Shown here one piece after another: positions 15,879 through 34,600 of a DNA stretch of 64,000 bases; position 1 is the first letter of the stretch; each line of letters starts with the position of its first letter. Both the position numbers and the translations under genes were made by a program. Below the pieces are notes generated by a model. The model saw only the letters and a list, made by a program, of their open reading frames with translations. It was not told the DNA's origin and did not search any database. This stretch comes from an uncultured Alphaproteobacteria bacterium. GTDB lineage: Bacteria > Pseudomonadota > Alphaproteobacteria > CAAGCB01 > CAG-977. Where the stretch lies: contig CAKQWA010000002.1 of assembly GCA_934277945.1 (NCBI GenBank), positions 162,410-226,409 of the forward strand. Direction: 5' to 3'.

Positions 15879-16856
15879 TTATGTCACTTCCGTCACCGCG
15901 CGGATGTTGCCCTGACGGTTGATTTGCACCACGCGCAACTTGTCGTGCATTTCGGCAATCGTCTTTTCGCGGTCGATTGTCGGATAGCAGTGCAGAATAC
16001 GGTCGGTGAACGCCTTGTAAGCGGCTTCGGAGTTTTCGGCGTGGATGGTCGCAAAGCAGTTGTCGTGCCCCGACCCCATCAGTTCCCACAGCGCGCCCGC
16101 GTTCGCCGTTGAAATTTCGCCGCCGATAATCGCGTCGGGAGTGAAACGCACGACCAAGTCGATCAGTTTCGGGTAAGTCATCGTGTTCGTCTGTTCGGTA
16201 CGCGACAGCACCAGATGAACGTGATTGGGATGCGGAACCATCAATTCGCGCGTATCTTCAATGGTGATGACGCGTTTGTGAATGTCCAGAATGGTTAAAA
16301 GGTTGTTCAAAAAAGTCGTTTTACCGGTCGCCGTCGCACCGGAAACCAAGATGTGATCGCCGCGCTTGATTGACAAAATCAGACGTTCGTACGGGTCTTC
16401 GGGGTTTTCCACTTCTTTCAAACGGTTCAGTTTCTGCAAGCGTTCGCCGGCTTTCAATCCGTAATCCCCCAGTCCGAATTTCAATTCTTCGGAGTGGACG
16501 CGGACGCACATGGCGATGCCGCCCGTCAAGTCTTCGTTGTCGTACATGACGTTTTTGCCGGCGATGCCTGTGAAACGGTGATCCCCCGGCAAAGTCGCGT
16601 ACACGGCGGGCGAGCCTTGTTCGGGGTCAAACGGCAGTTCAAACGTGTTGGCGATGATGTGCATGATGTCCGTCAGATAGGTGCGCGACAGGTTTTTGTC
16701 CGCCTGCGCCGCCCATGGATGCGCGCGCCGTCCGCGCAAACGCAGCCAGATTTCGTTCGGGCGGTTGATGGAAATTTCTTCCACATTGTCCTGTTCGTAC
16801 CAATAGGACAAATACCGCAATGTCGACTTTAAAACCTTAAAAGCATCCGTAGACAT
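15879..16856 (-). CDS. virB11: Type IV secretion system ATPase VirB11
   Basis: 325 aa with Walker A 'GATATGKTT', 'RFTPDAIIGGEIS' matching the VirB11 'RPDRIIVGEIRG' box, and the His-box 'CFATIHAENSEAA'. It is the last gene after the virB10 homolog. Confidence 0.8.
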   Translation of the reverse strand: MSTDAFKVLKSTLRYLSYWYEQDNVEEISINRPNEIWLRLRGRRAHPWAAQADKNLSRTYLTDIMHIIANTFELPFDPEQGSPAVYATLPGDHRFTGIAGKNVMYDNEDLTGGIAMCVRVHSEELKFGLGDYGLKAGERLQKLNRLKEVENPEDPYERLILSIKRGDHILVSGATATGKTTFLNNLLTILDIHKRVITIEDTRELMVPHPNHVHLVLSRTEQTNTMTYPKLIDLVVRFTPDAIIGGEISTANAGALWELMGSGHDNCFATIHAENSEAAYKAFTDRILHCYPTIDREKTIAEMHDKLRVVQINRQGNIRAVTEVT

Positions 16857-16875
16857 TTCAACCTCGCTTTACGCA

Positions 16876-19800
16876 TTAAAACAGTTCGGGAATCCCCTCG
16901 TCCTCCGCCGCCGCGGGCGCTTTCGCCGCCGCCTGAGCCGCCGCTTTCGCCGCCGCGTTCTTTGCGTTCGTCTGCTGCGGCGTTTTCGGCGTTTCAAGCG
17001 TCGTTTGCGGCGCTTGCTGTTGCTGGTTCGGCATATTCGGATTGTAGCCGTAATACGCGTTCGCCGGCATTTGCGACGGGGACTGCTCGACTTCGGCGCC
17101 GCTTGTCAGTTTCTGGGAGGAAGCGTCGATTTCACGCTGTTTCTGCTCTCTCAATTCCTGTTCGCGCTTGTCGATCAGTTTTGTCGTCTTTTCGCTCTGA
17201 TAATTCATGTCGTCTTCTTCGTCTTCCGTTTCCGTGCGCAACCACAAATCCTGATTGGCAAAAACGGTGATGCGCGTTCCCGACGGCACGAAAGAGCCGG
17301 ACGAAATCTGTTGCAGTTCGGAGAAGATCGCGTCGAAAATCTCCTGCATTTTGTCGGAGAAGTTGGAACGCGCGTCGTCCAAAGCCTGCTGTTTGCCGGT
17401 CGTCGTCGTCGTCGTACTGCCACCGGAAGCCGTTTCGACGGTCGTGCCGCCGTCCGCCATCATCCACAAAGCCGCGGATTCGACGACCGTTTCCAAAAGC
17501 GGCAGACCGAAGCGTTTCAGCAACTGCAAGTCCAAATAAGCGGGGATGCCGCCGCGTCCCTGCGCGTCGCCCGAAGATCCTTCCGGTTCGAACACGAATC
17601 CGACGCCGTCCGGACGAATCAAACGCGTCCACACGATAGCGATTTTCGACGCCGCCATCGGTCCCGCGCCGCTCTTGCCATCGCCGCCGGAGCCGATTTT
17701 CCCGATCAGGCGGCTGCCCGCCGGAATCAGAATGTTTCTGCCCGTTTCGGAATAAACGTTTCTTTCAACCACGGCGGAAACCGGCACGTTCGTATAGCGC
17801 GAATCAATGGAGCGCACCAAAACGGCGGGAATCGCCTTGTCCGCCAGAATCATGCGGCTCATGTCGACACGGTAGGAGGACGCGGTTTTCTTGATGCCCT
17901 GATCGCTCCAATCCTTGCTGACTTTCTGTTTGCGCCGGCGCTGTTTCTCGATATCGCTCTGCGACGCGCTTTGCAGTTGCCCCATGCTCATGGATTTGCG
18001 GCGCGCTTCCTGCATCGCCTGCAACTGCGCGATTCTTTGCGCGGAATAGCGTTCGCTGCGCCCCTGTCCGTAGCCTTTGATGCCGTACGCACCGCCGGAT
18101 TTGATGCCTTTACCGGCGGGAATTTCCGCCCCGCCCGTTCTTTTGGCTTCGCGCTCGGCATCGATTTTCGCCTGTTCCTCCGGCGACGTCTGCGTGCCGA
18201 TGATATTGCCGTCCGCGTCAATGATGTCGCCGTTTTCGTTGACGTAGCCGATGATGTTGCCGTTTTCGTCGACAACCGTGCCGTCGTCCAGAATGATGCC
18301 GAGTTTTTTACCCGTTTTAGAATAGGCGTATTTCGGTTTCGCCGCGTCGTTCGCGGGCGTAAAAACGCCGTCGTCCCAAGAACCGATGACGTTGCCGTTG
18401 ATGTCGACAATCTGACCGTCGGCGTTAATTCTGCCGATTTCCACGCCGTTCAGATTGACGACGCGGCCGTCGGGCAAAATCAGTCCGATGATGTTGCCGT
18501 CGGCGTCGCGCAACGGTTCGCCCTCCATGACCGACCCGATGACGTTGCCGTTCATGTCGACGACCGTGCCGTCGGGCAAAACTCTGCCGATGATGTTCCC
18601 TTCGTTGTCGCGCACATAGCCGTCCGCGCCGACAATGCCCAAGAACTCGCCGTTTCTGCCGATTGCCATTTTCACGGTTTCGTTGCCGGAAACGGCGGAC
18701 ACCTGACCGATGACGTTGCCGTCCAAATCGACGACCGTGCCGTCTTCCAGCACGCGCCCGATGATGTTGCCGTTCTCATCGCGCACAAAGCCGTCTTCGC
18801 CGACCGTGCCGATGACTTTGCCGTCGGGTCCCAAAACCTGCCTGCCGACAAATTTTTCGCTTGCGCCGACCTGCCCCAGAATGTTGCCGTCCATATCGAC
18901 GACCGTGCCGTCGTCCAGCACTCTGCCGATGACGTTTCCGTTCGCGTCGCGCACCAGACCGTCCGCGCCGACCGTGCCCAAAAGCGTGCCGTCAGGACCG
19001 TACACCTTGCGTCCCTCGAACGTCGCCTGAACTTTGCCGATGGGATTGCCGTTCATATCAACGACCGTTCCGTCCGGCAGAACTCTGCCGATGACATTCC
19101 CGTTCGCGTCGCGCACCAAGCCGTCCGCGCCGACCGTGCCCAAAAGTTTGCCGTCGGGTCCGTACACCTTGCGTCCCTCGAACGACGGCGCGACCTTGCC
19201 GATCGTTTTGCCGTTCATGTCGACGACCGTGCCGTCGGGCAGAACCCTGCCGATGACGTTCCCGTTCGCGTCGCGCACCAAACCGTCCGCGCCGACCGTG
19301 CCCAAAAGTTTGCCGTCGGGTCCGAACACCTGTCTGCCCGCGTAAGAGGGCGCCGCCTTGCCGATGACGTTGCCGTTCAAATCGACGACCGTGCCGTCGG
19401 GCAAAACTCTGCCGATGACGTTGCCGTTCGCGTCGCGCACCAAGCCGTCTTCGCCGATCGTGCCCAGCACTTCGCCGTTCGGTCCCAGAACCTGCTGATT
19501 GGCGAACAGGGAAGCCGGCACGCCGTCTTTCGTGTTCATCATGGAAATCCAGCACAAGTCCGTTCCGTCCTCTTTCACCGCCTTGCCGTTCGCCAGCAGT
19601 TTGCCCAGCACTTCGGAAGCCGTGTTGACGATTGAACCGTCATAATGCACCTTACCGACGGCGACGCCTTTCATTTTACATTCTTCGCCGATAGGCACGA
19701 CGCGCCCCAAGAATTTCTTGTCCGGCGTCAGCGTGCGCATTTCGGACGTGACGTAGCCCAAATCCTTGCCTTTGACGTTAACCACGCGTCCGTAGGGAGT

Positions 19801-22800
19801 CACCGTGCCGACCACGTCGCCCTTTTTGGAAATGACCAGTCTGCCGAAAGGCACTTCCACACCGATTTCCTGTCCGCTTTTGTAAACGGCTTTGCTTTGC
19901 TCGTTGACGACGCCCAGCGCGAAGCCCGTCACGGGATGCACGACGTAGCGGTTGCCGAACACGCGCCCGAGAACACGCCCGTGTCTGTCAACCAGATAAC
20001 GCCACCCCGCCGCCGCGCCGATGATGTTCTTTTCGGCGTCCAGCACCATGCCGTCCTGCGTGAAGCATCCGAGCGGATTGCCCTGATAGTCGATCACTTC
20101 GCCGTCGCCGACCGTGCGTCCGAACGACGAGCCGTCAAACGTGACGACCACGCCTTTCTGCACCAGTCTGCCGAGATTTTTGCCGCGTTTGTCGCGCACG
20201 ACGCCGTCGAAATCGACGCATCCGATTTCATCCATGCGCCCGTTCAGCACGCGCCCCTCGGCGTTCAGATTGCCGACGACCTCGCATTGAGAGCCGACCA
20301 CCGCGCGCGGTGAAACGACCAGACCGATCAAAGAGCCGTCGTTGTCGATCACGCCGCGGTCGTACGTCATGCGGGCGATGTTTTTGCCGTTTTTGAACAC
20401 TTCGCCCGTATCCATGCTCAACACGCCCGCGTCCATGTTGCAGGACGGCGCCAGAACGTACGGATCCATCACGCCGTAGCCGATGACGGCGTTCATTTTG
20501 TCCGTGACCGTTTCGTCGGGCAGGAACTTGCCGACCGTGCCGCGCTGTTGATGCACGACGTCGCCGCGCATGGAAATGCGTCCCAAAAAGTCGTTGGACG
20601 GCGTTAAAGCCAAGCCCGAAGACGATTTGAAGCCGACGACCTGACGTTCCGCGTCCGTCTGCATTTTGCCGATAATTTTGCCGTTGAAGTCGGCGACCGT
20701 GCCGTCCGTCCAGACGCGCCCGATGATTTTGCCTTTGAAATCGCGCACCAGAGCGTCGCGTCCGACAACGCCGAGCGGCTTGCCGTCGAAATCGACCGCC
20801 TGTCTGTTGATGTACTGCGCGGGCGGGTCGATTTGCCCGATGATTTTATCCTTGTCGTCCTCAACCGTGCCGTTGGGCAGAACTTCGCCCAAAACGGCGT
20901 TTTGACGGTCGACGACGTTGTTGTCGTTGTCAACGCGCCCGATGATGTTGCCCGTTTCGTCGTAAGCGCGCAGGGAAACGCGCCCGATGACGCGCCCGTT
21001 CAAATCAAGCACCGTGCCGTCGCGAATGACGCGCCCGATGATTTTGCCGGAGGAATCGCGCACCAGACCGTCGGCAAACACGACACCCAGCACCGTATCG
21101 CCCTGTTGCGAATACACGTCGTGATCCACGAAATTCGCGGGGGCTTCCAACTGCCCGAACACCTTGTTCGCGGAATCGTTGACCAAGCCGTCGGAATCCG
21201 CCGTGCCGACGATTTTGCCATCGTCGGAAACGACTTTGCTGTTTTCGTCCGTCTTGCCGATGAACGTGCCGAAAGAATCGTACGCTTTCGTTCCCACGGC
21301 GGGTTTGACGGAAAGCACTTTTTTGCCCTGCGCGTACTGCCCGATGACTTTTCCGGAAGCGTCCAGCACTTCGCCGGTCGCGGACACATAGCCGATGATG
21401 TTGCCGTTCGCGTCCATAATCGGTTCGCCGACGGCGACGATTTCGCCGATTTCGCGTCCCTCTTTGTCGAAAACGCGGTTGGACATATCGGCGTAACCGA
21501 TGATGTTGCCGTTCAAATCGACGACCGTGCCGTCCGGCAGAGCCGTCCCGATGACTTCGCCGTTTTTGCCGATGACCTGACGCACGCCCATGAACACGCG
21601 CCCGACCGTCGCGCCGTTTTTATCGACGACGCGTCCGTCCGGCAACTGCAAATTGCCCAGAAATTCGGATTTCTTGTCCAGAGCGATCCCCTCCGGCAGA
21701 ATACGCCCGATAATCGCCATGGAAGCGTCGAAAACAGGCACGCCCGCGGGAATGACGCCCGCGATTTTAACGTGTTCCGCGTCTTCAATGTAGCCGGTGC
21801 TGACGACGCGTCCCAAACGCTTGTCGCCGCCCAAAGTCAACGCTTCGCCGCGTTCGTTGCCGCGCCCGAACAGAACGCTGTCCTGATTAAGAGCCAAACC
21901 GGTGGAAAGAGGCGTCCCCAAAAACGCGGGCTTGCGCCCCAGCATACTGATCAGACCGTCCGCGCGCAGACAGCCGACGGGCTTGCCCTCCTCGTCGATC
22001 AGTTCGCCCTTGTAGTTCGTATAGCCCAGATACTCGTTCCGGTTGCCCAAAACGCTGCCGCCCTTGACAACACGTCCGATAAACTTGTCCTTATCGTTGA
22101 AAACGGCGTTATTATCCTGAATGTAGCCCAAACGCTCCATGCGCGAATTGACGATGCGCCCGTCGGGAATGATTCTGCCCAGCGGCAGACACGGCATCTG
22201 CATCGCGTAAGCGTCGCGCGGCACGACGCGCCCGACTTTCGAGCCCGAAGCGTCAACGACGACACCGTCGGAGAACACGCGCCCCAAAACCGCGCCTTTG
22301 ATATCCGTCGCCATCGCGTCGGGAGCGACAAAACCGACGGAACGCCCTTTGGCGTTGATGACGCTGTAATTCGGCAACAGTCCGCCCAGCACGACGTTTG
22401 TGGAATCAATGGCGAGGCGCGACGGATCCATACAGCCGATGACCATGCCTTTCTTATTGACGACCTTGCCGCTTTCGTTGGCGAAGCCTTCCACTTCCCC
22501 CGATGAACCGACGACAATCGGCGTATACGGTATCGCGCCGGTCACCATGCCGTCTGCCCCGAAAACATCTCCCGAAGAACTCAACGAACCTTCCACCTGA
22601 CTTGTCGAAACGGAAACGATCTTGCCTTCCGAGTCAAGATACCCCAAGACTTCACAGCCGGCTCTGACGGCAACGGGAACATCGTCGTTCACCCAAGCGC
22701 CCGTCACCTGCCCCGTCGACGACAGAAAAGCACCGTCGGGCTGAATGCGCCCTTTCAGTTCTCCGCCCGAAACAACCGCGCCGTCCGGCATAATCCGTCC

Positions 22801-24411
22801 GATAAACGCGCCCCGCCGTCCGACGACAACCCCTTTGGGACGGACGCTGGCGATAATTTCCATATCAGAGTTTAAAACGGTGGATTGCGGGGTCAGGCAC
22901 CCCAGCGGATCGCCTTTGTGATTGATCGGCGTGCCGTCCGTGTCAATGCGCCCGATGATGTTGCCGTCCCAGTCCAGCAGCGGACCTTCCTGCACCAAAG
23001 AGCCGACCGGATTGCCGTTCAAATCCAGAATGACGCGCGTGGAGGTCATGTGACCGACAAGTTTGTTGTCTTTCAGCACGGAGCCGTCCGTGCTGACGCG
23101 CCCGAGAACGCGGCATCCGGATCCGACGGCGATACCGGTTTGCACCGTGCGGCTGATGATGTTTTTATTGCTGTCAATAATCAGACCGCCGGGCAGAGCC
23201 TTGCCGATGACCGTGCCGTCTTCGTTGACGACGCGGCCGTCCGGCAGAACGACGCCGAGCGAACGCCCCATGCCGTCCACGACGCCCCCTTGCGGCACCA
23301 GCGTGCCGAGAGGCTTGCCTTCCAAATCGACAACCGTGCCGTCGGGGTTCAAATAGCCTATCAGATTTCCCGTTTCATCGACGACGCGGCCGTCCGGCAG
23401 AACTTTGCCGATGACGTTGCCCTTTTTGTCGTACACGTTGCCCGCCGCAATCGCCGAGCCGATGACGTTGCCGTTCAAATCCACGATCGTGCCGTCGCGC
23501 AACGCCCTGCCGATGACGTTGCCGTGCGAATCAACGACGCGCCCGTCGGGCAGAACCGTGCCGATGACTTCGCCGTTCGGTCCCAAGGCGATTTTCTGCC
23601 CCTCGACGACGCCGATGATGTAACCGTCCGCGTCCACAACGGTGTTGTCGGGCTGAACCATGCCGATTTTCTTGCCGTCCAGACCGATGGCGACGCCGTT
23701 TTCGTCGGCGTACCCGATCGGTTTGCCGTCCAGACCGAGAATCAAGCGTCCCTTGTCCTGCAAATTTTCAATCATCGTGCGTTTTTCGCCCGACGGACTT
23801 TCCACGTTGTCGCAAACGCCGCACATACTTGTGTCGATTGCGGTCGCGGAAACGGGAATGACGACTTTTTTACCGATGATGCCGAAAGTTTCGTCGCGCC
23901 AGCGCACCGCCAGATTGTTTTGAATGGAGCGCGCCTGCTTGGGCTCCCAGCGCACGACGACGTTGCAAACCGCGTCGCCGGTCAAGATTTCGTTCGCCTT
24001 GCACTTGTTTTCCAGCGTAAAGCCGTCTTTCTGGACTTCTTCAAAATCGACGGAAATGATGCTGACCTTGCCCGACGAACTGGACAGCGAAACGGTCGCT
24101 TCCGCCTCGGTGTTCAGCACGACCTGATCGAAACGGATCGCTTCGGGGGTCGCCACGACGCGCACCGTCGTTTTTTCAGGCATGTTGATTTGCAACTGGT
24201 CGACGCCGGTTCCCGTCACGCCGGACGACGCGTCAACACCGTCGCCGACGGTTAGCTTTGCGTCCTCCTTGACCGTTTCGACGCCGCCCATCAGAATAAC
24301 CAACCCGATCAGAAACGCGAACAACGCTCCCAATCCGACGAACAGAATCGTCCGGTTTGTCTTTTTCAAATATGTTTCAGACGAGCTGAGATATTCTTCT
24401 TCGTCAGACAT
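16876..24411 (-). CDS. virB10: Giant VirB10/TrbI-family T4SS protein (2511 aa) with a huge internal tandem-repeat array; CagY/DotG-like architecture
   Basis: Short cytoplasmic N-terminus plus one TM ('ILFVGLGALFAFLIGLVILMGG'). The C-terminal region 'VPVSAVVERNVYSETGRNILIPAGSRLIGKIG...IAIVWTRLIRPDGVGFVFEPEGSSGDAQGRGGIPAYLDLQLLKRFG' matches the VirB10/TrbI barrel domain. About aa 225-2075 consists of ~17-aa 'LPDGTVVDLNGNVIGKV'-type repeats. A Q/A/K-rich tail follows. Confidence 0.8.
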   Translation of the reverse strand: MSDEEEYLSSSETYLKKTNRTILFVGLGALFAFLIGLVILMGGVETVKEDAKLTVGDGVDASSGVTGTGVDQLQINMPEKTTVRVVATPEAIRFDQVVLNTEAEATVSLSSSSGKVSIISVDFEEVQKDGFTLENKCKANEILTGDAVCNVVVRWEPKQARSIQNNLAVRWRDETFGIIGKKVVIPVSATAIDTSMCGVCDNVESPSGEKRTMIENLQDKGRLILGLDGKPIGYADENGVAIGLDGKKIGMVQPDNTVVDADGYIIGVVEGQKIALGPNGEVIGTVLPDGRVVDSHGNVIGRALRDGTIVDLNGNVIGSAIAAGNVYDKKGNVIGKVLPDGRVVDETGNLIGYLNPDGTVVDLEGKPLGTLVPQGGVVDGMGRSLGVVLPDGRVVNEDGTVIGKALPGGLIIDSNKNIISRTVQTGIAVGSGCRVLGRVSTDGSVLKDNKLVGHMTSTRVILDLNGNPVGSLVQEGPLLDWDGNIIGRIDTDGTPINHKGDPLGCLTPQSTVLNSDMEIIASVRPKGVVVGRRGAFIGRIMPDGAVVSGGELKGRIQPDGAFLSSTGQVTGAWVNDDVPVAVRAGCEVLGYLDSEGKIVSVSTSQVEGSLSSSGDVFGADGMVTGAIPYTPIVVGSSGEVEGFANESGKVVNKKGMVIGCMDPSRLAIDSTNVVLGGLLPNYSVINAKGRSVGFVAPDAMATDIKGAVLGRVFSDGVVVDASGSKVGRVVPRDAYAMQMPCLPLGRIIPDGRIVNSRMERLGYIQDNNAVFNDKDKFIGRVVKGGSVLGNRNEYLGYTNYKGELIDEEGKPVGCLRADGLISMLGRKPAFLGTPLSTGLALNQDSVLFGRGNERGEALTLGGDKRLGRVVSTGYIEDAEHVKIAGVIPAGVPVFDASMAIIGRILPEGIALDKKSEFLGNLQLPDGRVVDKNGATVGRVFMGVRQVIGKNGEVIGTALPDGTVVDLNGNIIGYADMSNRVFDKEGREIGEIVAVGEPIMDANGNIIGYVSATGEVLDASGKVIGQYAQGKKVLSVKPAVGTKAYDSFGTFIGKTDENSKVVSDDGKIVGTADSDGLVNDSANKVFGQLEAPANFVDHDVYSQQGDTVLGVVFADGLVRDSSGKIIGRVIRDGTVLDLNGRVIGRVSLRAYDETGNIIGRVDNDNNVVDRQNAVLGEVLPNGTVEDDKDKIIGQIDPPAQYINRQAVDFDGKPLGVVGRDALVRDFKGKIIGRVWTDGTVADFNGKIIGKMQTDAERQVVGFKSSSGLALTPSNDFLGRISMRGDVVHQQRGTVGKFLPDETVTDKMNAVIGYGVMDPYVLAPSCNMDAGVLSMDTGEVFKNGKNIARMTYDRGVIDNDGSLIGLVVSPRAVVGSQCEVVGNLNAEGRVLNGRMDEIGCVDFDGVVRDKRGKNLGRLVQKGVVVTFDGSSFGRTVGDGEVIDYQGNPLGCFTQDGMVLDAEKNIIGAAAGWRYLVDRHGRVLGRVFGNRYVVHPVTGFALGVVNEQSKAVYKSGQEIGVEVPFGRLVISKKGDVVGTVTPYGRVVNVKGKDLGYVTSEMRTLTPDKKFLGRVVPIGEECKMKGVAVGKVHYDGSIVNTASEVLGKLLANGKAVKEDGTDLCWISMMNTKDGVPASLFANQQVLGPNGEVLGTIGEDGLVRDANGNVIGRVLPDGTVVDLNGNVIGKAAPSYAGRQVFGPDGKLLGTVGADGLVRDANGNVIGRVLPDGTVVDMNGKTIGKVAPSFEGRKVYGPDGKLLGTVGADGLVRDANGNVIGRVLPDGTVVDMNGNPIGKVQATFEGRKVYGPDGTLLGTVGADGLVRDANGNVIGRVLDDGTVVDMDGNILGQVGASEKFVGRQVLGPDGKVIGTVGEDGFVRDENGNIIGRVLEDGTVVDLDGNVIGQVSAVSGNETVKMAIGRNGEFLGIVGADGYVRDNEGNIIGRVLPDGTVVDMNGNVIGSVMEGEPLRDADGNIIGLILPDGRVVNLNGVEIGRINADGQIVDINGNVIGSWDDGVFTPANDAAKPKYAYSKTGKKLGIILDDGTVVDENGNIIGYVNENGDIIDADGNIIGTQTSPEEQAKIDAEREAKRTGGAEIPAGKGIKSGGAYGIKGYGQGRSERYSAQRIAQLQAMQEARRKSMSMGQLQSASQSDIEKQRRRKQKVSKDWSDQGIKKTASSYRVDMSRMILADKAIPAVLVRSIDSRYTNVPVSAVVERNVYSETGRNILIPAGSRLIGKIGSGGDGKSGAGPMAASKIAIVWTRLIRPDGVGFVFEPEGSSGDAQGRGGIPAYLDLQLLKRFGLPLLETVVESAALWMMADGGTTVETASGGSTTTTTTGKQQALDDARSNFSDKMQEIFDAIFSELQQISSGSFVPSGTRITVFANQDLWLRTETEDEEDDMNYQSEKTTKLIDKREQELREQKQREIDASSQKLTSGAEVEQSPSQMPANAYYGYNPNMPNQQQQAPQTTLETPKTPQQTNAKNAAAKAAAQAAAKAPAAAEDEGIPELF
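18190..23740 (-). repeat. Coding tandem-repeat array inside virB10
   Basis: The array is roughly 17-aa DGxVVDxxGNVIG units, on the order of 100 copies. They are grouped into 54-aa super-repeats. A sub-region near 18.75-19.5 kb holds near-identical 162-bp DNA copies. Confidence 0.7.
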
Positions 24412-24415
24412 GGTG

Positions 24416-25954
24416 TCATTGTGTCCTTATCACCGTGCAGGCGACGCCGCGGCGTCCCAACTGCGAACATAACGAGTTGCCCTCTTTCAGACTTTCGACG
24501 GGTCCGATGCGCAAACGGAACAGATCCTTGCCGTCGCCGTCCGCCGAAGCGTCAATCGAATAGAACGGCGTGAATTTGCCCAGCAAATCCTTGTTCTTGC
24601 GGGAAATGTTGCCCCACAAGCGTTCCAAATTCGCAATTTCGGCGTCGCTGCCGAATTCGACGGAAATCTTTTCGGGCAGGTTCTTCGCCGCCGGACGCTT
24701 GACATAGCCGTCCGACACCCCTGCACAGCCGGCGCAATTCATTTGAGCCAAGCCCGCCATCGCCTGCGCCGCCGTCATCGGCGCGCCGCTTGTCATCGTG
24801 TTCTTGATTGTCGCGCCGCCCGTCATGTTCAGCCCCGACGTTTTCGGATTGATCGGCGCGGGGACGTATTCGGGCTGGACGGCGGGATCGTAACTGACCC
24901 ATTCCGTGCCGAAAGCGGGATCTTTGCGGATGCGCAGGCAGACAATCCGCTTGCCGTTGCGCAAAACCATGTCGCCAACGCCCTCGACCACAATCAAGCG
25001 GCTGTGCGGTCCCCGAGTTCTGAAACCGACGGGAACTTCGGAGCCCTGCACCAAAAGGTTGACAATCGGACGTTGCAACATGCTCAACGCCTTGGGTCCC
25101 AAGTCGATATAGGTGAAAATTTCGTCGCGCCACACGCGTTCGGGGGCGATTTCAATGTCGTCGGGGTTCGGAATGAACACGTCGATGTCGAAACGCAGTT
25201 TTTCCGGATCGACGGGAATATCGTCAAGCCAGCCGTCGCCGGCGGGATTCGTTTTCGTCGTTCCGCCCTTGCCGACGGCGGAAGAACCGCCTTTGCCGTT
25301 GCGGGAAACGCCGCCGCCCGCGCCTTTCGCCACCGTTCCCGCCGCCATGGGCGTCGTGCCGGAAGCGTCGGGCGTGTAATTCGCGTCGTTGACGACGATG
25401 TCGACGACCGCGTTCGTGATGCGGTCGGTGTTAAACGTTTCGCTTCTTAAATAAAAGACGTATCTGTTGCCCGACCGTCCCATGACGACCATGTTGCTGT
25501 CCACGCCGACGAAGCCGGAGGAGGCTTCCGCGTAAACCAGCAGGGCGTTCGGCGCGGCGAACGTCGTTGAAAAAGCGACCTGATCGCCGACCCAGACCGT
25601 GTCCAGCAATTCCCAAGACGGAAAATTGATCAGCGTGACCATGCCTTCGCGAATGCGCAGCGGCAGAACCAGATCCGGCGTCCATTGATAGCGCGAATAT
25701 CCCGGTTTCGTCTGCCCCTCGCCCAGATGCTCCATCGGCTTGTTCCACGCCTTTTGCTGCATCCCCCAAGACGACAGATGACTGATGTCCATTTCGGAAT
25801 ACTGCCCGTTCGACTGTTCGATTGCGGCGTCCATTGATTCGTAAGAGGACGGGGCGGCTTGCGCGAAAGAGCGCGACGGCAGGCAGGACAGCCCGAAAAC
25901 CGTTGCGGCGAGAATGGATTTTTGAATAAATGTTTTCACGGCAGCACCTATCAT
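24416..25954 (-). CDS. virB9: VirB9/CagX/TrbG-family T4SS outer-membrane core protein with a C-terminal SPOR (peptidoglycan-binding) domain
   Basis: Signal peptide, then a VirB9 N-domain ('RIREGMVTLINFPSWELLDTVWVGD...NRYVFYLRS'). After a Gly-rich linker comes a VirB9 C-domain ('EIFTYIDLG...LRNGKRIVCLRIRK'). The last ~80 aa, 'ISVEFGSDAEIANLERLW...DLFRLRIGPVESLKEGNSLCSQLGRRGVACTVI', is SPOR-like. The start overlaps the virB8b stop by 1 nt. Confidence 0.7.
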   Translation of the reverse strand: MIGAAVKTFIQKSILAATVFGLSCLPSRSFAQAAPSSYESMDAAIEQSNGQYSEMDISHLSSWGMQQKAWNKPMEHLGEGQTKPGYSRYQWTPDLVLPLRIREGMVTLINFPSWELLDTVWVGDQVAFSTTFAAPNALLVYAEASSGFVGVDSNMVVMGRSGNRYVFYLRSETFNTDRITNAVVDIVVNDANYTPDASGTTPMAAGTVAKGAGGGVSRNGKGGSSAVGKGGTTKTNPAGDGWLDDIPVDPEKLRFDIDVFIPNPDDIEIAPERVWRDEIFTYIDLGPKALSMLQRPIVNLLVQGSEVPVGFRTRGPHSRLIVVEGVGDMVLRNGKRIVCLRIRKDPAFGTEWVSYDPAVQPEYVPAPINPKTSGLNMTGGATIKNTMTSGAPMTAAQAMAGLAQMNCAGCAGVSDGYVKRPAAKNLPEKISVEFGSDAEIANLERLWGNISRKNKDLLGKFTPFYSIDASADGDGKDLFRLRIGPVESLKEGNSLCSQLGRRGVACTVIRTQ

Positions 25955-26670
25955 CAGTCGGTTACGCTTTCAATGGAATATCCGTCGACGGAAAAGCCGA
26001 GCGGATTTTTCAAACGGTTGACATATTTCACTTCGTTTTTGGCGAAGTACCGTACCATGACCTGCACTTTCCAGCGGGACAAAGCGGGTTCTTCGGCTTC
26101 GGGAAGCATATCGCGCGTTTGCAGATACACCACCCACAAATTTTGCTGGCGCACGACGGATTCGATACGCACTTCGCGGGTCAGCCCGTCGATTTTGATG
26201 CGTTCCAGCCAATCGCGCAGAGTTTTGTTGAATTCGTTGTAAACGCGGTCGGACGACATCCAGCGGATCGGACCGTCGACGCCCCAGCGGAACGACATTT
26301 CGTCGATATCGGCGACCATGGTGTTGCGCAACAGGACGTACTGGCGGATCAACGCTTCGGTAATGATGTCGGAAGCCGCCAGATTCGCGCTGAGCGGCTG
26401 GACGCGCACGACCTGTTCGTCGCGGCTTTGGAACGTCAGCAGATACGGCTCGACGCGCTTTAACGGCAGCAAATTCCCTATGGCGAGCATTAAAACGATG
26501 TTCGCGCTCAAAGCCACGCCCGACACAATGGCGAAAGCGCGCGCCGTCCACAAATAGCGGCGTTCGCGCAACGCGTCGACGGACACTTCGGAAATTTCGG
26601 GCGTCGGAATTTTCGCCTTCGCCTTTCCGGAAGCGTTGTTTTTCTGTGCGGGAGCGGCGGGTCTAGCCAT
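25954..26670 (-). CDS. virB8: VirB8-family T4SS inner-membrane protein, paralog b
   Basis: Bitopic protein with a cytoplasmic N-terminus, the TM 'AFAIVSGVALSANIVLMLAI', and a periplasmic NTF2-like domain ending with the VirB8 hallmark 'NPLGFSVDGYSI'. Confidence 0.7.
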   Translation of the reverse strand: MARPAAPAQKNNASGKAKAKIPTPEISEVSVDALRERRYLWTARAFAIVSGVALSANIVLMLAIGNLLPLKRVEPYLLTFQSRDEQVVRVQPLSANLAASDIITEALIRQYVLLRNTMVADIDEMSFRWGVDGPIRWMSSDRVYNEFNKTLRDWLERIKIDGLTREVRIESVVRQQNLWVVYLQTRDMLPEAEEPALSRWKVQVMVRYFAKNEVKYVNRLKNPLGFSVDGYSIESVTD

Positions 26671-26691
26671 AGCGTTTCATCCTCGGTCAGA

Positions 26692-26871
26692 TTACGACAT
26701 CAACCATTCGGGCAAACCGGGTTTCAAGTCGATTTGCATACAGGCGCACGGCGATTTTTTCAATTCGGAATAATCGGGTCCTATGCCGACGGGTTCGGTT
26801 TCATAAATCGAACTGCACGCGCCCAGCGCGGCGGTCAATGCGAAAATTAAAATCAATCCTGTTTTTTTCAT
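26692..26871 (-). CDS. Small lipoprotein (59 aa), VirB7-like by position and size
   Basis: Not in the ORF track (<60 aa). The minus-strand ORF reads 'MKKTGLILIFALTAALGACSSIYETEPVGIGPDYSELKKSPCACMQIDLKPGLPEWLMS'. It has a lipoprotein-type signal with Cys at position 19 (LGAC lipobox) and sits between the two virB8 paralogs. Confidence 0.45.
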   Translation of the reverse strand: MKKTGLILIFALTAALGACSSIYETEPVGIGPDYSELKKSPCACMQIDLKPGLPEWLMS

Positions 26872-26935
26872 CGCGTTCTTCCTGTCTGTCTTTTTTTCTT
26901 TTATCCGTTTATCGACCTTTTGTCCATGAGAAAGC

Positions 26936-27640
26936 CTATTTTTTCTGCTTGGCGACGTTATATTGCATCACCGTGAAGCCCATCGGGTTTTTCAAACGGC
27001 GCGCCATGATGGCGTTAAAGGCGAAATAGCGGAATTGAATGGTGGCGATCCAGCTGGTGACAACCGGTTCGACCGCGCCTTCTTTCAGTTCGCGGGTGTC
27101 GAAAAACACCTGCCAGTTGTTCCAGCCGTCCTTGATAATGCGCTTCATGTCGACTTCGACGGTCTGTTCAATGGCTTTTTTGCCGTCGACGATGTCCTCG
27201 ACGTAGCGTGTGGCGAATTTTTCGTACACGGACGGAATGGACAGCGAAGCGATAACCCCGCCGTAGCCCCAGTTGACTTTCATTTCGCGCAGATTCTGCA
27301 CGACGGAGTGGCGAACGGACACATATTGACGCACATACATTTCCGCCAGCGTGTCCATTTTGGGCGCGTCGGCGTGAAGCGGCTCGAAATAAGCGAGATT
27401 TTCGGAAAAAGTCGGCGACGTGACGACGAACGTGTTCGCCTCCGCCTCGCCCGCCAGATGCAGCAGCATCAGGGACAAAAGCGCGGAGGTCGCCGTAAAG
27501 AAAAAGCACAAAGCGCCGAAAATGCGCGATATCCACATAAACTGCGTGGCGCGGTTTTCGGCAATGGCTTCCGCGCGGCGTTTTGCGGCGTTAATGGCGG
27601 CGTTTTGAGCCTTTTTAAGTTGCGTATAATTTTTTTCCAT
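26936..27640 (-). CDS. virB8: VirB8-family T4SS inner-membrane protein, paralog a
   Basis: 234 aa with the TM 'IFGALCFFFTATSALLSLMLLHL' and a periplasmic domain ending 'NPMGFTVMQYNV', the NPxGF VirB8 motif. It is the first gene of the cluster. Confidence 0.7.
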   Translation of the reverse strand: MEKNYTQLKKAQNAAINAAKRRAEAIAENRATQFMWISRIFGALCFFFTATSALLSLMLLHLAGEAEANTFVVTSPTFSENLAYFEPLHADAPKMDTLAEMYVRQYVSVRHSVVQNLREMKVNWGYGGVIASLSIPSVYEKFATRYVEDIVDGKKAIEQTVEVDMKRIIKDGWNNWQVFFDTRELKEGAVEPVVTSWIATIQFRYFAFNAIMARRLKNPMGFTVMQYNVAKQKK

Positions 27641-31615: not shown

Positions 31616-34600
31616 TTATTTATGCTTCATGAGCAGATTCGGGTTGTCAACCGGTCTGACGCGCCGCTGTTCGTAATCCATGTACGCGTTCGGGAAGTTG
31701 AAGTTCTGCGGATCGAAGTAGCAGTAGGTGTGCACCAGCGCCTGCATCGAGCCGGAGAAAATGCCGCCCATGTTCCAGAAGTAATCCGGCGAAGTGGCGG
31801 ACGTTTTGACCTTGTTCGGCGTCACGGTGCCCATGGCGACCGCCCAACCGCACAAAGTTTTCCCGCCGTATGCACCGCAATCGTAACGGGTCGTATCGGT
31901 GCGCAACCTTGTATCCATTGTAATTTGCAGACAATTTGCCGGCGAGTTCGCGCACAGCGGCTTCGCGGCGACGGCGATGCGCGTCGCGGGCTGGTAGATG
32001 AACGGCACTTCCGTGCGGTAGTCCTGATGTCCGAAGTTCTGGAAACGCCGGCTTGTCTGAATGACGTCCGCCAGATACCTGTTCGGCTGATCGGGATCCG
32101 TATGCGCCTCCCAACCGTAAGTGGGGTCGCCCTCTTGCGAGTCGTCTTCTTCGACAATGGGCAGTTTGCTCAAATCGTTCACGACGTAAAATTCGCCGCC
32201 CGTCGTCGTCGGACCGATAGGAATGGTGCTTGCCGTCGAATTCGACCCCGCGTCGATGAAGATGACCTTGCCCACGTCGAACGCTGTCGGCGTGACGGTC
32301 ATAACGGGCAGATAACCGGCGGGGCAAATGCCTGCCAAATGGTCGTCAATCCCGACAACGCTGCTTCTGCTTGAAGAGTTATACGATGTAAAGCTCACAT
32401 ACATCCCCGGCGCCGGCACGACCCCCATGAACGGGTGGGTCAGACAGCCCGCGGACGACCCGCCGGAACAATGGTAATAATTGTTCGCGGCGTAGGACAC
32501 GAACATGGAACGCGGGTTGACGTTGTACGCCTTGTAGCCGCTTGCGTTCAGCGTGCAGTAGTTTTTGTACCCGAAGCGGTTCATCAGCGAGCAGTCGGTT
32601 TCCCACGCCTCCATGTAATAACTGTTGCGGCTGGCATAGTGGTACTTGTCCAACGTGGCGTTGTTCGTGTCCATATACCGAGCCGGCTCTTTCGCCAATC
32701 TGCCGCGCGGCACGACGAACGAGCAGTTTCCGGGGTTGGAGTTGTAGTAGTTGTAATAACCGTCTTTCCAACCGTCTTCTTTATACATATTTCTTGTCGT
32801 CGCATCGGTTGTGTCGCAGGGCCACGGACCTTTCGCGTATTGGTTGGTTAATGTGTAGATCGACTTCAACACATAGTTCGGCAGAATGTCGCTCAAATTC
32901 GCACCGCCGCGGCTGGTCAGCTTGATGTCGTTCATGACGGACACATACGCGGGGTCCAAACGGAAAGCGTCATAGATTTCCTTGGGTACGTTGGATGTAC
33001 TGCCGTATCTGAACATGGAGGAAGTCGGCTGATACGACTGACCGTCGCCCAGCGCATAACTGTCCCTGCGTCCCGTGGAATAGTTGTAACCGCCGGTTGC
33101 AGTGTCGTTGTCAATCTTTCGAACCTGACGGAACGTCTCGCTGCTGGTATAAGTGTAATATGTCGCATTGTTCCTCCAGTTTATCGTTTGATCCACAGTA
33201 TCGCCGAACTTGCGGGCTTCGTCCCTGTTGACTTCGATGTAGCCGTCCCTGATTTTCCAGTAGCGCGTATCCAAGTCGATGCCTGCCTGACCGTTTCCGG
33301 CAAGTTGCAATCTGCCGTACGACGTGGTTGCCGAACCGTTCCAAGAAGTGTTCGCGGGCTGGTGGACGATTGTCGAAAATTCGGCGATCGGCGGCGTGCC
33401 GTGCGTCGTGTCCGAGCCGTATTGCGACGTGATAATCAAACCGCCGATGATTTTGTTCTGCGCGCCCATGGTGTAGAAACGGGGATCCGCCCTTGTCGCG
33501 TACCTCGGTACGTCAGAACTTAAAGATACGGAGTTCACCAGCGTCGGATTCGGCATGAAATTTTGCGAAACGACGCTCGACTTATTCGGAAGTTTATAAA
33601 AACGCGTATCCGCGCTATTCGTTGAAATTCTGCCGAACGGCGCCCCGTTCAAACCCGAACCGACAGCGTTAATCTGCTCTCTTTGGGTTATAAAGCCGAA
33701 TCTGGCATTTTGCCAGCCTTGCGGCGAATTCGCCGTAAATGCAGTATCAAGCGTTTGTTCGCCCGTACCGACCACAACGCCGGCGGTCGCCCCCAACTTC
33801 AAGTTCATGCCGACGGCGGAAAAGTCGTTCCAAGCAGTACTGTCCGGAACGCGCACAATGTTGCCAAGCAAACCGGACGTGACGTGTATGCCCGAATCGC
33901 CGATCGCCATATAGTCTTGACGGTACGACACGTCGGAAAGCAACTGGCTCTGCGCAAATCTTCTCATTGACGTGCCGGGGGTTTGCGACACGGCAAGCGT
34001 CGTCAAATCGGACGTCGCCGTCAGCAAATTGAAAGTGTCGTAATGGATGCCGCCGGTGCTTCCCGCCGTCATGTTCAACGAAGCGCGCTCCGTCGTATAC
34101 TGTCCTGTCGCTTTGAAAAAGTCGGACGTGGCGCGGTGCTGGTTCTGCCATTCCTCAATGTTGCGGAACGGCGTGCGCGGGTCGAAAAGCACGCGTTCCG
34201 TGCGCAACGAGGAACGCAGTTGCGGCAAAGCGGTGTCCTGAACGCTCGCGTACGAGTCCATTTCCAGCGTCGACCCTTGCAACAGACCGGTGGAGCCGTA
34301 TTCGTCTTCACCCGTAATGTTTTCAGCCACGGCGACCGCCGACAAGTTCAGCGACGGAATGTAGGACAAATGATACCAAGAGTTGTATTGCGCATCCCGT
34401 TTATGATCCGAACGCGGTTGCGACAGCGAGTGCGACCGCAATTTCAACTGCGCCGCCTTTGTCAGCGATTTCCATACTTCGTTGTTGCGCGCGGCTTCCG
34501 AAACCTGTCCGCTTAAAATGTACCCTTTGTGCACGTCGGACGAAACGGCGGACAAAGTCGCCACAGGCGAAGCCGGTTGCATGGCGTCCTGATACGACGA

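Follow-up and report, generated by a model that had tools for sequence, protein, structure and literature searches.

In canonical VirB10/TrbI proteins a proline-rich linker leads from the membrane helix to the barrel, and in DotG/IcmE of the Legionella/Coxiella Dot/Icm systems an N-terminal anchor is followed by long internal tandem repeats, viz. pentapeptide repeats, and by a VirB10-like C-terminal domain. The CagY protein of H. pylori carries, "unlike other VirB10 orthologs", a large recombining repeat region; its middle repeat region is built from two kinds of motif, A and B, which are 31-39 residues long, and two membrane-spanning segments flank the surface-exposed repeats (PMC5954226). 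For the rvh system of R. typhi, the operon is given as rvhB8-II / rvhB7-rvhB8-I-rvhB9-II-rvhB10-rvhB11 (PMC4676284). The hairpins of a beta-flower close into a shallow 4-, 5- or 6-fold barrel. The beta-flowers (Pfam clan CL0395) have been described as single domains of small size with 8-12 strands, lipoproteins being among them (Durairaj et al. 2023, PMC10584680).

The giant virB10 gene considered here lies in a stretch of 64,000 nucleotides from an uncultured Alphaproteobacteria bacterium, the whole of which is called the window below. [quoted passage not shown] The genes of this cluster and the parts of the virB10 product are located as follows.

15879-16856, minus strand: virB11 ATPase (Pfam T2SSE; NCBIfam VirB11 3.6e-42, which falls short of the equivalog cut-off)
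16876-24411, minus strand: giant virB10 coding sequence, 2,511 aa (ORF list, translation, Pfam)
16879-17238, minus strand: C-terminal tail, aa 2392-2511, acidic and then Q/P/A-rich low-complexity (from the translation)
17239-17850, minus strand: TrbI/VirB10 C-terminal domain, aa 2188-2391 (Pfam and PDB matches)
18187-23754, minus strand: region of beta-hairpin repeats of the beta-flower type, about aa 220-2075, ~1,850 aa
24280-24348, minus strand: single N-terminal transmembrane helix, aa 22-44 (Kyte-Doolittle maximum 2.92 at aa 22)
24416-25954, minus strand: virB9 (CagX family) with a C-terminal SPOR domain (Pfam)
25954-26670, minus strand: virB8 (Pfam VirB8 1e-19)
26692-26871, minus strand: lipoprotein of 59 aa with an LGAC lipobox, VirB7-like by position (translation; gene called in assembly L001, see below)
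26936-27640, minus strand: second, more divergent virB8 paralogue (Pfam VirB8 9e-14; no NCBIfam match)

The gene order (viz. virB8, virB7-like, virB8, virB9, virB10 and virB11) is kept in relatives, and virB4, virB6 and virD4 were absent among the 18 window ORFs scanned against Pfam. Judged by its genes, the system is a predicted chromosomal P-type T4SS, rvh-like in gene order: both the order and the duplicated, divergent VirB8 match those of the R. typhi operon map (PMC4676284). However, the window cluster is without a virD4 after virB11, the G+C content of the host and its flagellar and LPS genes are further differences, and the passages of PMC4676284 consulted make no mention of a giant RvhB10.

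The gene had been named virB10 in an initial annotation made from the letters of the window, and the domain matches bear this name out. The TrbI profile (PF03743) reached 107.8 bits where 35 are required, with positions 2-188 of its 188 covered, and phmmer against the PDB returned ComB10 (6e-14), CagY (3.5e-8 and 1.7e-7, chains E), Xanthomonas VirB10 and TrwE (6e-5 each) and TraF (3e-3). The VirB10 equivalog of NCBIfam (NF038091) reached 92.9 bits, its cut-off being 220, and PRK13855 reached 21 bits with a cut-off of 374. On these sequence matches the product is a divergent member of the VirB10 family. Plus-strand ORFs over the array described below (e.g. 17005-19635 and 19034-19345) were rejected as shadow ORFs of the G+C-rich repeat, because all domain matches fall in the minus-strand frame. 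Similar to the canonical proteins (A. tumefaciens VirB10, TraF, TrwE, Xanthomonas VirB10 and ComB10), the window protein is predicted to be bitopic and ends in a TrbI domain, and its gene is placed between virB9 and virB11; however, it is about 5-6 times longer (the matched VirB10/TrwE chains have 395-406 aa), and its linker is made up of ~1,850 aa of hairpins and an Ig-like N-terminal domain. With DotG it shares the layout of anchor, tandem repeats and VirB10-like domain, but the Pfam scan of the window virB10 gave no Pentapeptide family match and its neighbours are virB8, virB9 and virB11 (type IVA) rather than dot/icm genes.

The hairpin region is recognised by the profiles PF21785 (441.9 bits, gathering threshold 38) and PF21784 (145.2 bits, threshold 25), and the Pfam matches over the whole product are Bflower_2 (6e-135, in 19 stretches), Bflower, DUF3659 and TrbI (8e-31). 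Its basic repeat has a period of 17 aa or 51 nt, the latter spacing being seen also in the DNA repeat families, and the product holds 51 [DNE]xxGxx[ILV]G motifs with a modal spacing of 17 aa. The semi-conserved [DNEQ]xxG hairpin-tip motif and the period of ~17 aa are those of the beta-flowers (PMC10584680), but the window protein joins over 100 hairpins to a core subunit of a secretion system within a single polypeptide. Relative to CagY, the likeness consists of the homologous C-terminal VirB10 domain with very large internal repeats N-terminal to it, whereas the 17-aa beta-flower hairpins (PF21784/PF21785) are unrelated in sequence to the A and B motifs. The hydrophobic segment at aa 22-44 is preceded by KKTNR, and a bitopic topology, with a short cytoplasmic tail at the N-terminus, was predicted from the hydropathy scan. 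A Kyte-Doolittle scan of the whole product gave no second hydrophobic segment flanking the repeats, the only other segment of at least 1.6 being a weak, Asp-containing one at aa 883-901. Because there is only one membrane helix, the hairpin repeats are predicted to be periplasmic.

Within this region, in the part nearer to the C-terminal domain, a longer repeat of 54 aa is superimposed on the hairpins. Its features are given below.

18499-19485, minus strand: array of a three-hairpin module in six units, aa 1643-1971 (54, 54, 54, 56, 57 and 54 aa)
19324-19485, 19162-19323, 19000-19161, 18832-18999, 18661-18831 and 18499-18660, minus strand: the six units, in order from unit 0
18661-19536, minus strand: variable zone (units 0-4), about aa 1626-1917, with conserved flanks on either side (alignment with the seven closest relatives)
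about 19540 and about 18660: conserved flanks of the zone, encoding ...CWISMMNTKDG and ...NETVKMAIGRNGEF, respectively
19000-19323, minus strand: unit pair 1-2, 146/162 nt identical (90.1 %), the only pair at ~90 %
19283-19324, minus strand: first copy of a 42-nt exact direct repeat, the longest in the gene
19121-19162, minus strand: second copy of this repeat, at an offset of 162

An AlphaFold2 model of the array (pLDDT 86, pTM 0.49) has three hairpins per unit, with dips in confidence at the linkers and an alternation of 3- and 5-residue strands; on this model the 54-aa module is three beta-hairpins. A Foldseek comparison of the model with the PDB gave no meaningful match, as it returned beta-hairpin solenoids (e.g. 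TcdB CROPs and RHS/teneurin) at a TM of at most 0.16, and the array sequence gave only marginal beta-propeller matches in the PDB and none to CagY.

That 162-bp tandem repeats exist in this gene, as the initial annotation had stated, was confirmed by the six units seen at the protein level and by Tandem Repeats Finder, which reported an array of period 162 at 18884-19466 (3.6 copies, 86 % matches). However, the same annotation described at least three consecutive units as almost identical in their DNA and sharing an EGRKVY ending, and this description does not hold: EGRKVY is carried by just two units, and the high identity is confined to units 1-2. For the others the values are 81.5 % (units 0-1), 80.2 % (1-3), 76.5 % (2-3) and 68-78 % (remaining pairs), so that the best pair is indeed flanked by more diverged copies, as had also been proposed. 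The identity above 90 % at a spacing of 162 that was expected from a self-comparison is barely present, just 4 starts reaching at least 90 % over the full 162 nt, with a maximum of 95 % over 100 nt. Elsewhere in virB10, in-frame self-matches over 162 nt go no higher than about 66-68 %. A recent duplication or gene conversion, which had been suggested from the likeness of adjacent units, is not supported. The dS of units 1-2 is 0.29-0.36 and their dN 0.04-0.05 (dN/dS about 0.1-0.2; across unit pairs, dS 0.29-0.73 and dN/dS about 0.1-0.5), and a dS of this size with a dN/dS of about 0.1-0.17 means an old copy that is under purifying selection. Gene conversion as the origin of the 42-nt perfect tract was likewise rejected as a firm conclusion; by a rough estimate a run of this length is not significant when 16 of 162 nt differ, and runs of up to 41 nt occur in the codon-redrawn nulls.

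The repetition of virB10 at the DNA level nevertheless exceeds chance. In its 7.5 kb, exact direct repeats with a length of 16 nt or more form 81 pairs, which average 19.1 nt and do not exceed 42 nt. This is ~8 times the 9.9 +/- 4.0 obtained when codons for the same protein were redrawn according to the usage of the gene; for lengths of 25 nt or more, 8 pairs are present where 0.28 are expected under the codon-redrawn null. Further, at the positions where units 1-2 share an amino acid, 33/42 codons are identical against 21 expected. The offsets of all 81 pairs are divisible by 3, i.e. in frame, which is to be expected because any coding repeat behaves so.

The number of units in an array of this kind can be wrong if short reads were collapsed or expanded during assembly, and the initial annotation had warned that the copy number was for this reason unreliable. 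For the window this warning appears unfounded. No exact repeat is longer than 42 nt, and 16/162 positions differ between the best units; because of this, reads of 100-150 nt with k = 141 resolve every unit and an assembly made at k = 141 is not at risk. Further, two independent assemblies (L001 and L002) match the window at 100 % identity, over 19.8 and 27.5 kb, so that the same sequence was assembled, base for base, in at least two samples; because of this identity, the three assemblies probably represent one strain. The exact virB10 protein is encoded on 5 contigs. In favour of an artefact, the fragmentary gene calls of relatives end in the variable (hot) zone in 11/25 cases against 20 % expected (binomial P = 0.006), and the relatives P0018 and P0281 differ by one unit only; this pair being otherwise 100 % identical, its indel could be an assembly collapse. 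Relatives with near-perfect copies thus merit checks with long reads, whereas the copy number in the window assembly is trustworthy, and an artefactual array in the window is to be regarded as exceedingly improbable.

More than 770 relatives were found, which are VirB10s of 1,500-2,600 aa. All of them belong to uncultured Alphaproteobacteria, and samples of the human gut are the source of several. A scan of JGI metagenomes returned no relative, a scan of GTDB genomes returned relatives at 28-29 % identity only, and in an exact-sequence cluster look-up the protein was absent from the clustered collection. A static array, viz. a residue of an old duplication kept alike by codon bias and strong protein constraint, which has ceased to recombine in this lineage and has a fixed copy number, would be in accordance with the lengths of most relatives: 16/23 species-level groups have no unit-scale length change, and in the P0005 cluster (141 members) all 15 members listed have 2201 or 2202 aa. 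The inter-unit dS of 0.3-0.7 with low dN/dS and the identity of the locus in the two other assemblies are also in accordance with fixed repeats. However, unit-sized in-frame indels are present in 7/23 groups, in 6 of these 7 within the zone homologous to that of the window. They are seen in the clusters P0001 (2290 vs 2211/2212 aa), P0009 (2428 vs 2350 aa) and P0029 (2498/2499 vs 2429/2432 aa, with the indel present on each of two haplotype backgrounds), in the P0099 clade (48 aa) and in the pairs P0018/P0281 (79 aa), P0033/P0304 (69 aa) and P0038/P0310 (66 aa). One example of such a change was followed at a junction in the DNA, where the short allele is a chimera, with copy A to the left, copy B to the right and the changeover within 71 nt of perfect identity, and this chimera was recovered with MEGAHIT k141 and SPAdes alike.

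In the relatives whose arrays changed, the copies resemble each other no more closely than those of the window do (84-88 % identity, perfect runs of 26-71 nt), and with 81 exact direct repeats of 16 nt or more the window gene is richer in these than the same relatives (2-38). Further, the number of units in the zone differs among all close species, and the zone is missing from P0007. In view of these observations, repeats of permanently fixed number are an unlikely account of the array, although any variation at the window locus is extrapolated from relatives that are just 41-49 % identical. The same zone is prominent in the family as a whole: recent higher-order repeats (at least 75 % over 40 aa) are present in 45/120 relatives, with unit lengths of 49-81 aa depending on the lineage, and all of them are confined to this zone, being situated 442-898 aa before the C-terminus. 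The last array unit (18499-18660) is kept in all close relatives, and the last two window units are positional orthologues of P0005 units, while the window protein has the strict module motif 6 times and its closest relatives have it 3, 2 and 1 times. These comparisons support the view that the array is a lineage-specific amplification.

The initial annotation had gone further and likened the repeats to those by which H. pylori tunes the function and antigenicity of CagY, through RecA-dependent expansion and contraction in frame. If the window protein were such a switch or rheostat, or a means of antigenic variation, then its repeats should be surface-exposed and frequently rearranged in frame within the host. 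An analogous architecture, with a very large repeat region directly N-terminal to the VirB10 domain, is indeed present; the direct repeats of both proteins permit rearrangement in frame only, and both show unit-scale indels between strains, here in the relatives. The recurrence of these indels (7/23 groups, with two haplotype backgrounds in the P0029 cluster) and the origin of relatives from human gut samples, e.g. Hadza, could be interpreted in the same sense. [quoted passage not shown] The window protein has one membrane helix and not the two flanking segments of CagY (PMC5954226), and the dN/dS of its youngest pair is about 0.1-0.2. Further, the long and short alleles of the relatives are sub-lineages 1-2 % apart rather than clonal variants, and in contrast to CagY the variation in the window family is observed between sub-lineages. 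Gain and loss of modules in the relatives occurs much less often than in H. pylori CagY, and with 16/23 groups invariant in length, CagY-like tuning or antigenic variation is considered very unlikely. The expansion and contraction in frame stands for the relatives, but its dependence on RecA is not supported: in the units of 162 nt no perfect tract is longer than 42 nt, and in the original cagY study the size variants arose without need for RecA (PMC2194252).

The explanation that we consider probable is a lineage-specific amplification of the module, with gain and loss of units in frame by misalignment of repeats, for which the window array would be a modest substrate. The giant VirB10 would form the bridge between the inner and the outer membrane in the T4SS of this uncultured alphaproteobacterium, its proline-rich periplasmic linker having been replaced by ~1,850 aa of hairpins of the beta-flower type. 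The 162-bp repeats are tandem copies of the 54-aa module, five of them variable and one conserved, that occupy the one amplification-prone zone of the protein, ~550-880 aa before the C-terminus and ~220 aa upstream of the outer-membrane barrel domain. Misalignment between direct repeats may then lead to gain or loss of units in frame, either by unequal crossing-over or, more likely, by RecA-independent replication slippage at perfect tracts of ~20-70 nt, the latter being favoured because the units are so short and so diverged, and at a rate that would show when strains or sub-lineages of related species are compared, but not within hosts. The copies in the window have diverged since (dS 0.3-0.7) under purifying selection, and because of this divergence the array would be a modest substrate for recombination; its assembly is reliable. 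The idea of recombination put forward for these repeats is therefore best retained at the level of the family, where it probably takes the form of an occasional, RecA-independent misalignment.

With regard to earlier descriptions, an any-term literature search for beta-flower with VirB10 returned, as its top-ranked papers, papers on VirB10 alone, searches for DUF3659 and for VirB10 with tandem repeats and Alphaproteobacteria returned unrelated material only, and none was found for RF32 with type IV secretion. The family of giant beta-flower VirB10s is apparently undescribed. Its predicted periplasmic linker amounts to about 2,000 aa of beta-flower hairpins, and one defined zone among these has amplified and lost modules repeatedly. 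The number of units may matter for the size of the periplasmic scaffold. It is possible, though rather doubtful, that the zone of variable modules beside the outer-membrane core domain is a convergent counterpart of the CagY repeats, in which the number of modules tunes the size or the binding of the machine and is under selection. If this is the case, then the six-unit array of the window would be one allele of a variable-number module system, and the zone would gain and lose modules of three to five hairpins and in this manner adjust the secretion machine. The family provides a second, independent case for asking why T4SS machines evolve VirB10 subunits of variable length, and through it the beta-flower fold, which was named only recently, acquires a first cellular context.

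The repeat array is contained in a single open reading frame coding for a giant VirB10 protein, which is five to six times the usual size for this protein.

Features of the giant virB10 gene (minus strand) and its neighbours
16876..24411, minus: giant virB10, 7,536 nt, 2,511 aa, single ORF containing the whole array
N-terminus: short, basic tail
aa 22-44: strong hydrophobic helix, the only one
aa 87-168 (23908..24153, minus): Ig-like (choice-of-anchor D) region, weak sub-threshold match
~1,850 aa: 17-aa beta-hairpin repeats, matching beta-flower PF21785 (E 6e-135, 19 stretches), PF21784 and DUF3659
aa 2188-2391: C-terminal TrbI/VirB10 domain, 107.8 bits against a cut-off of 35
after the TrbI/VirB10 domain: low-complexity tail ending the protein
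downstream: virB11
24416..25954, minus, upstream: virB9 (VirB9/CagX homologue) with a C-terminal SPOR (peptidoglycan-binding) domain
upstream, beyond virB9: virB8
between the two virB8 genes: 59-aa lipoprotein, LGAC lipobox
upstream, beyond the lipoprotein: second, more divergent virB8

The C-terminal domain of this protein matches the solved chains of ComB10, CagY, Xanthomonas VirB10, TrwE and TraF, and the placement of the repeats inside virB10 by the initial annotation was thus correct, although this VirB10 is oversized. The stretch linking the membrane helix to the hairpins may contain an Ig-like domain. Some relatives of the protein match the ASH domain (Pfam PF15780). The fusion of a SPOR domain to a secretion-system core subunit is, to our knowledge, unusual. 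Open frames are also present on the opposite strand (17005..19635, 20833..22506 and 22885..24255, plus; 876, 557 and 456 aa), but these are taken to be shadow ORFs, not genes, arising opposite the G+C-rich repeats; every domain match is on the minus strand. The locus lies on the chromosome, close to flaF, motAB, lpxK and rpoB/rpoC, and its gene order (15879..27640, minus) is divergent virB8, 59-aa lipoprotein, virB8, virB9, virB10 and virB11. The Rickettsia typhi rvh islet (viz. rvhB8-II / rvhB7-rvhB8-I-rvhB9-II-rvhB10-rvhB11; PMC4676284) shows the same order; however, the window genome differs in its ~55 % G+C, its nearby flagellar genes and the lack of a virD4 after virB11. An ORF of 2,141 aa (31616..38041, minus), which adjoins the virB cluster in other assemblies too, is without a Pfam match; its N-terminus (…ERG|ALMLEAIALLGLMTLM…) resembles a prepilin-type leader with Glu at +5, and it may encode a giant pilin-like protein.

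Within virB10, the initial annotation described at least three almost identical 162-bp units flanked by more diverged copies. A period-162 array is present at 18884-19466 (3.6 copies, 86 % matches; Tandem Repeats Finder), and at the protein level six successive units (numbered 0 to 5) of 54, 54, 54, 56, 57 and 54 aa are seen at aa 1643-1971 (window 19485..18499). Units 1 and 2 (19323..19000), which are 90.1 % identical in nucleotide sequence, are the only pair at ~90 %; identity is 81.5 % for units 0-1, 80.2 % for 1-3, 76.5 % for 2-3 and 68-78 % for the rest. In a self-comparison at an offset of 162, identity of at least 90 % over a full unit is reached at only four start positions and the best 100-nt stretch is at 95 %, while 162-nt self-matches in the rest of the gene peak at ~66-68 %. 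Hence, the periodicity is upheld, as are the diverged flanking copies and the difference from the remainder of the gene, but "near-identical" describes no more than one pair, all others being 68-82 % identical. Compared with the same protein re-encoded using the codon table of the gene itself, exact direct-repeat pairs are in excess, both at 16 nt or longer (81 observed, 9.9 ± 4.0 expected) and at 25 nt or longer (8 against 0.28), and the DNA similarity of the array exceeds that due to protein constraint and codon usage. In an AlphaFold2 model of aa 1632-1975 (32-sequence alignment; mean pLDDT 86, pTM 0.49), each 54-aa unit forms three beta-hairpins with strands of 3 and 5 residues, and the inter-unit linkers are dips in confidence. 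Beta-flowers are shallow barrels of 8, 10 or 12 strands, i.e. 4, 5 or 6 hairpins (PMC10584680); no solved structure resembling the array model was found.

The copies were earlier ascribed to recent duplication or gene conversion. However, even units 1 and 2 show a dS of 0.29-0.36 with a dN of 0.04-0.05 (Nei-Gojobori counts), their amino-acid differences being concentrated in the third hairpin loop and the linker, and dS for the remaining pairs is 0.37-0.73. The array is neither recent nor being homogenised by conversion, and these values point to an older amplification maintained by purifying selection. It also does not constitute the assembly hazard that was suspected. The longest exact direct repeat in the whole gene is of 42 nt (19283-19324 and 19121-19162), and as the units differ from one another at no fewer than 16 of their 162 positions, any read or k-mer exceeding 42 nt resolves the array. 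Five contigs encode exactly this protein, and the two loci retrieved, which are MEGAHIT (k141) assemblies from different samples, match the window at 100 % identity over 27.5 and 19.8 kb. The copy number of the window array is reliable; because of their identity, these contigs are probably from one strain and uninformative on population variation.

A protein search identified >770 proteins of 1,500-2,600 aa with the same beta-flower plus TrbI architecture, all from uncultured Alphaproteobacteria and some from human gut metagenomes (e.g. Hadza). The best relative is 41 % identical to the window protein in local and 49 % in global alignment, and the synteny virB8, small ORF, virB8, virB9, virB10, virB11 and flaF is kept. 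Of 120 full-length members, 45 contain a higher-order repeat (at least 75 % identity over 40 aa), whose unit length is 49, 51, 54, 58, 69, 73 or 79-81 aa depending on the lineage; in all 45 it is restricted to a stretch 442-898 aa from the C-terminus, the remainder of the ~2,000-aa repeat region having none. When the window protein is aligned with its seven closest relatives, this zone is seen to be bounded by well conserved, unique flanks (left, ...KFLGRVVPIGEECK...C.IS.M; right, ...VK.A.GR.G.FLG.VG.DG.VRD...), between which the module number varies species by species, in every one. In the close relative P0007 (2,015 aa), the whole zone (window aa ~1626-1925) is absent due to an in-frame deletion that starts at the first module and extends to the conserved last one, suggesting either that the zone can be dispensed with or that the P0007 gene is in decay. 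The window protein has six copies of the strict module motif G.VG.DG.VRD..GN.IG.V..DGTVVD..GN.IG, against three in P0005, two in P0001 and one in P0006, and its last two units are as far from the C-terminus as two of the P0005 units. Based on the alignment and these counts, the window array is an expansion specific to this lineage, inside a variable zone (18661..19536) that is ancestral and nearly matches the interval 18750-19530 initially annotated.

Length variation was surveyed in 23 groups, viz. 22 clusters (species-level groups at 90 % identity with at least two full-length members) and one clade of near-identical clusters. Seven of these contain in-frame indels of unit size.

In-frame indels of unit size among related giant VirB10 proteins
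P0001 cluster: 2290 vs 2211/2212 aa, 79 aa
P0009 cluster: 2428 vs 2350 aa, 79 aa
P0029 cluster: 2498/2499 vs 2429/2432 aa, 69-70 aa; two haplotype backgrounds with long and short forms
P0099 clade: 48 aa
P0018/P0281: 79 aa
P0033/P0304: 69 aa
P0038/P0310: 66 aa, N-terminal site outside the variable zone

The remaining 16 groups showed no unit-scale change, differing by at most 1-2 residues or in start-codon calls; one invariant cluster has 141 members, the 15 listed being of 2201 or 2202 aa. In-frame expansion and contraction of the zone, as initially proposed, is thus real in the family and plausible in the window gene. In one lineage, P0038 and P0310 differ by a 66-aa module of hot-zone type (alignment columns 237-302) close to the N-terminal beginning of the repeats, and the C-terminal zone is therefore not a strict limit for module indels. 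The P0018/P0281 difference is possibly an assembly collapse, as these proteins are otherwise 100 % identical. Given this one-unit difference and the fragmentary gene calls of relatives ending inside the hot zone (11/25 against 20 % expected, P = 0.006), real assembly breaks or collapses may occur at this zone in relatives with near-perfect copies.

In the P0001 cluster, where MEGAHIT k141 and SPAdes assemblies yielded both alleles, the long allele carries two 237-nt copies that are ~94 % identical, and the short allele has copy-A bases to position 4459 and copy-B bases from 4531, placing the switch within the sole 71-nt perfect tract. Deletion from a long ancestor appears the more likely direction, because the alleles differ at 1.1 % of sites whereas the copies are ~6 % apart. 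The short allele of P0009 is likewise a chimera, of copies only 84.6 % identical with a longest perfect run of 26 nt. The RecA dependence initially proposed is unsupported for the window: its units are of 162 nt with perfect tracts of at most 42 nt, due to which RecA-independent slipped misalignment would be at least as likely as RecA-dependent exchange, and size variants of cagY were found in a recA mutant too (Aras et al., PMC2194252). We infer the slippage step from short-tandem-repeat work as cited within that paper.

A rapid antigenic or rheostat function similar to that of CagY, the Helicobacter pylori VirB10 orthologue, was also envisaged. The cagY middle repeat region contains 235-302 exact direct repeats that are 16 nt or longer (mean 35-48 nt), allowing 347-443 potential rearrangements, all in frame (Aras et al., PMC2194252). 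The 81 pairs in the window gene are all in frame too, but they are several-fold fewer and, with a mean of 19 nt, half as long; relatives with documented indels have fewer still (2-38). Further, the repeat region of CagY is surface-exposed and flanked by two membrane-spanning segments (PMC5954226), whereas the single membrane helix of the window VirB10 predicts periplasmic hairpins. Together with the low dN/dS and the length-invariance in most related species, these differences argue against such a role. Overall, the initial observation is confirmed in part and its interpretation partly supported. The giant beta-flower VirB10 proteins constitute a large, apparently so far undescribed family, which has a variable-number module zone of conserved position. 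In its position and behaviour this zone resembles the CagY middle repeat region, although its repeats are unrelated to it in sequence.
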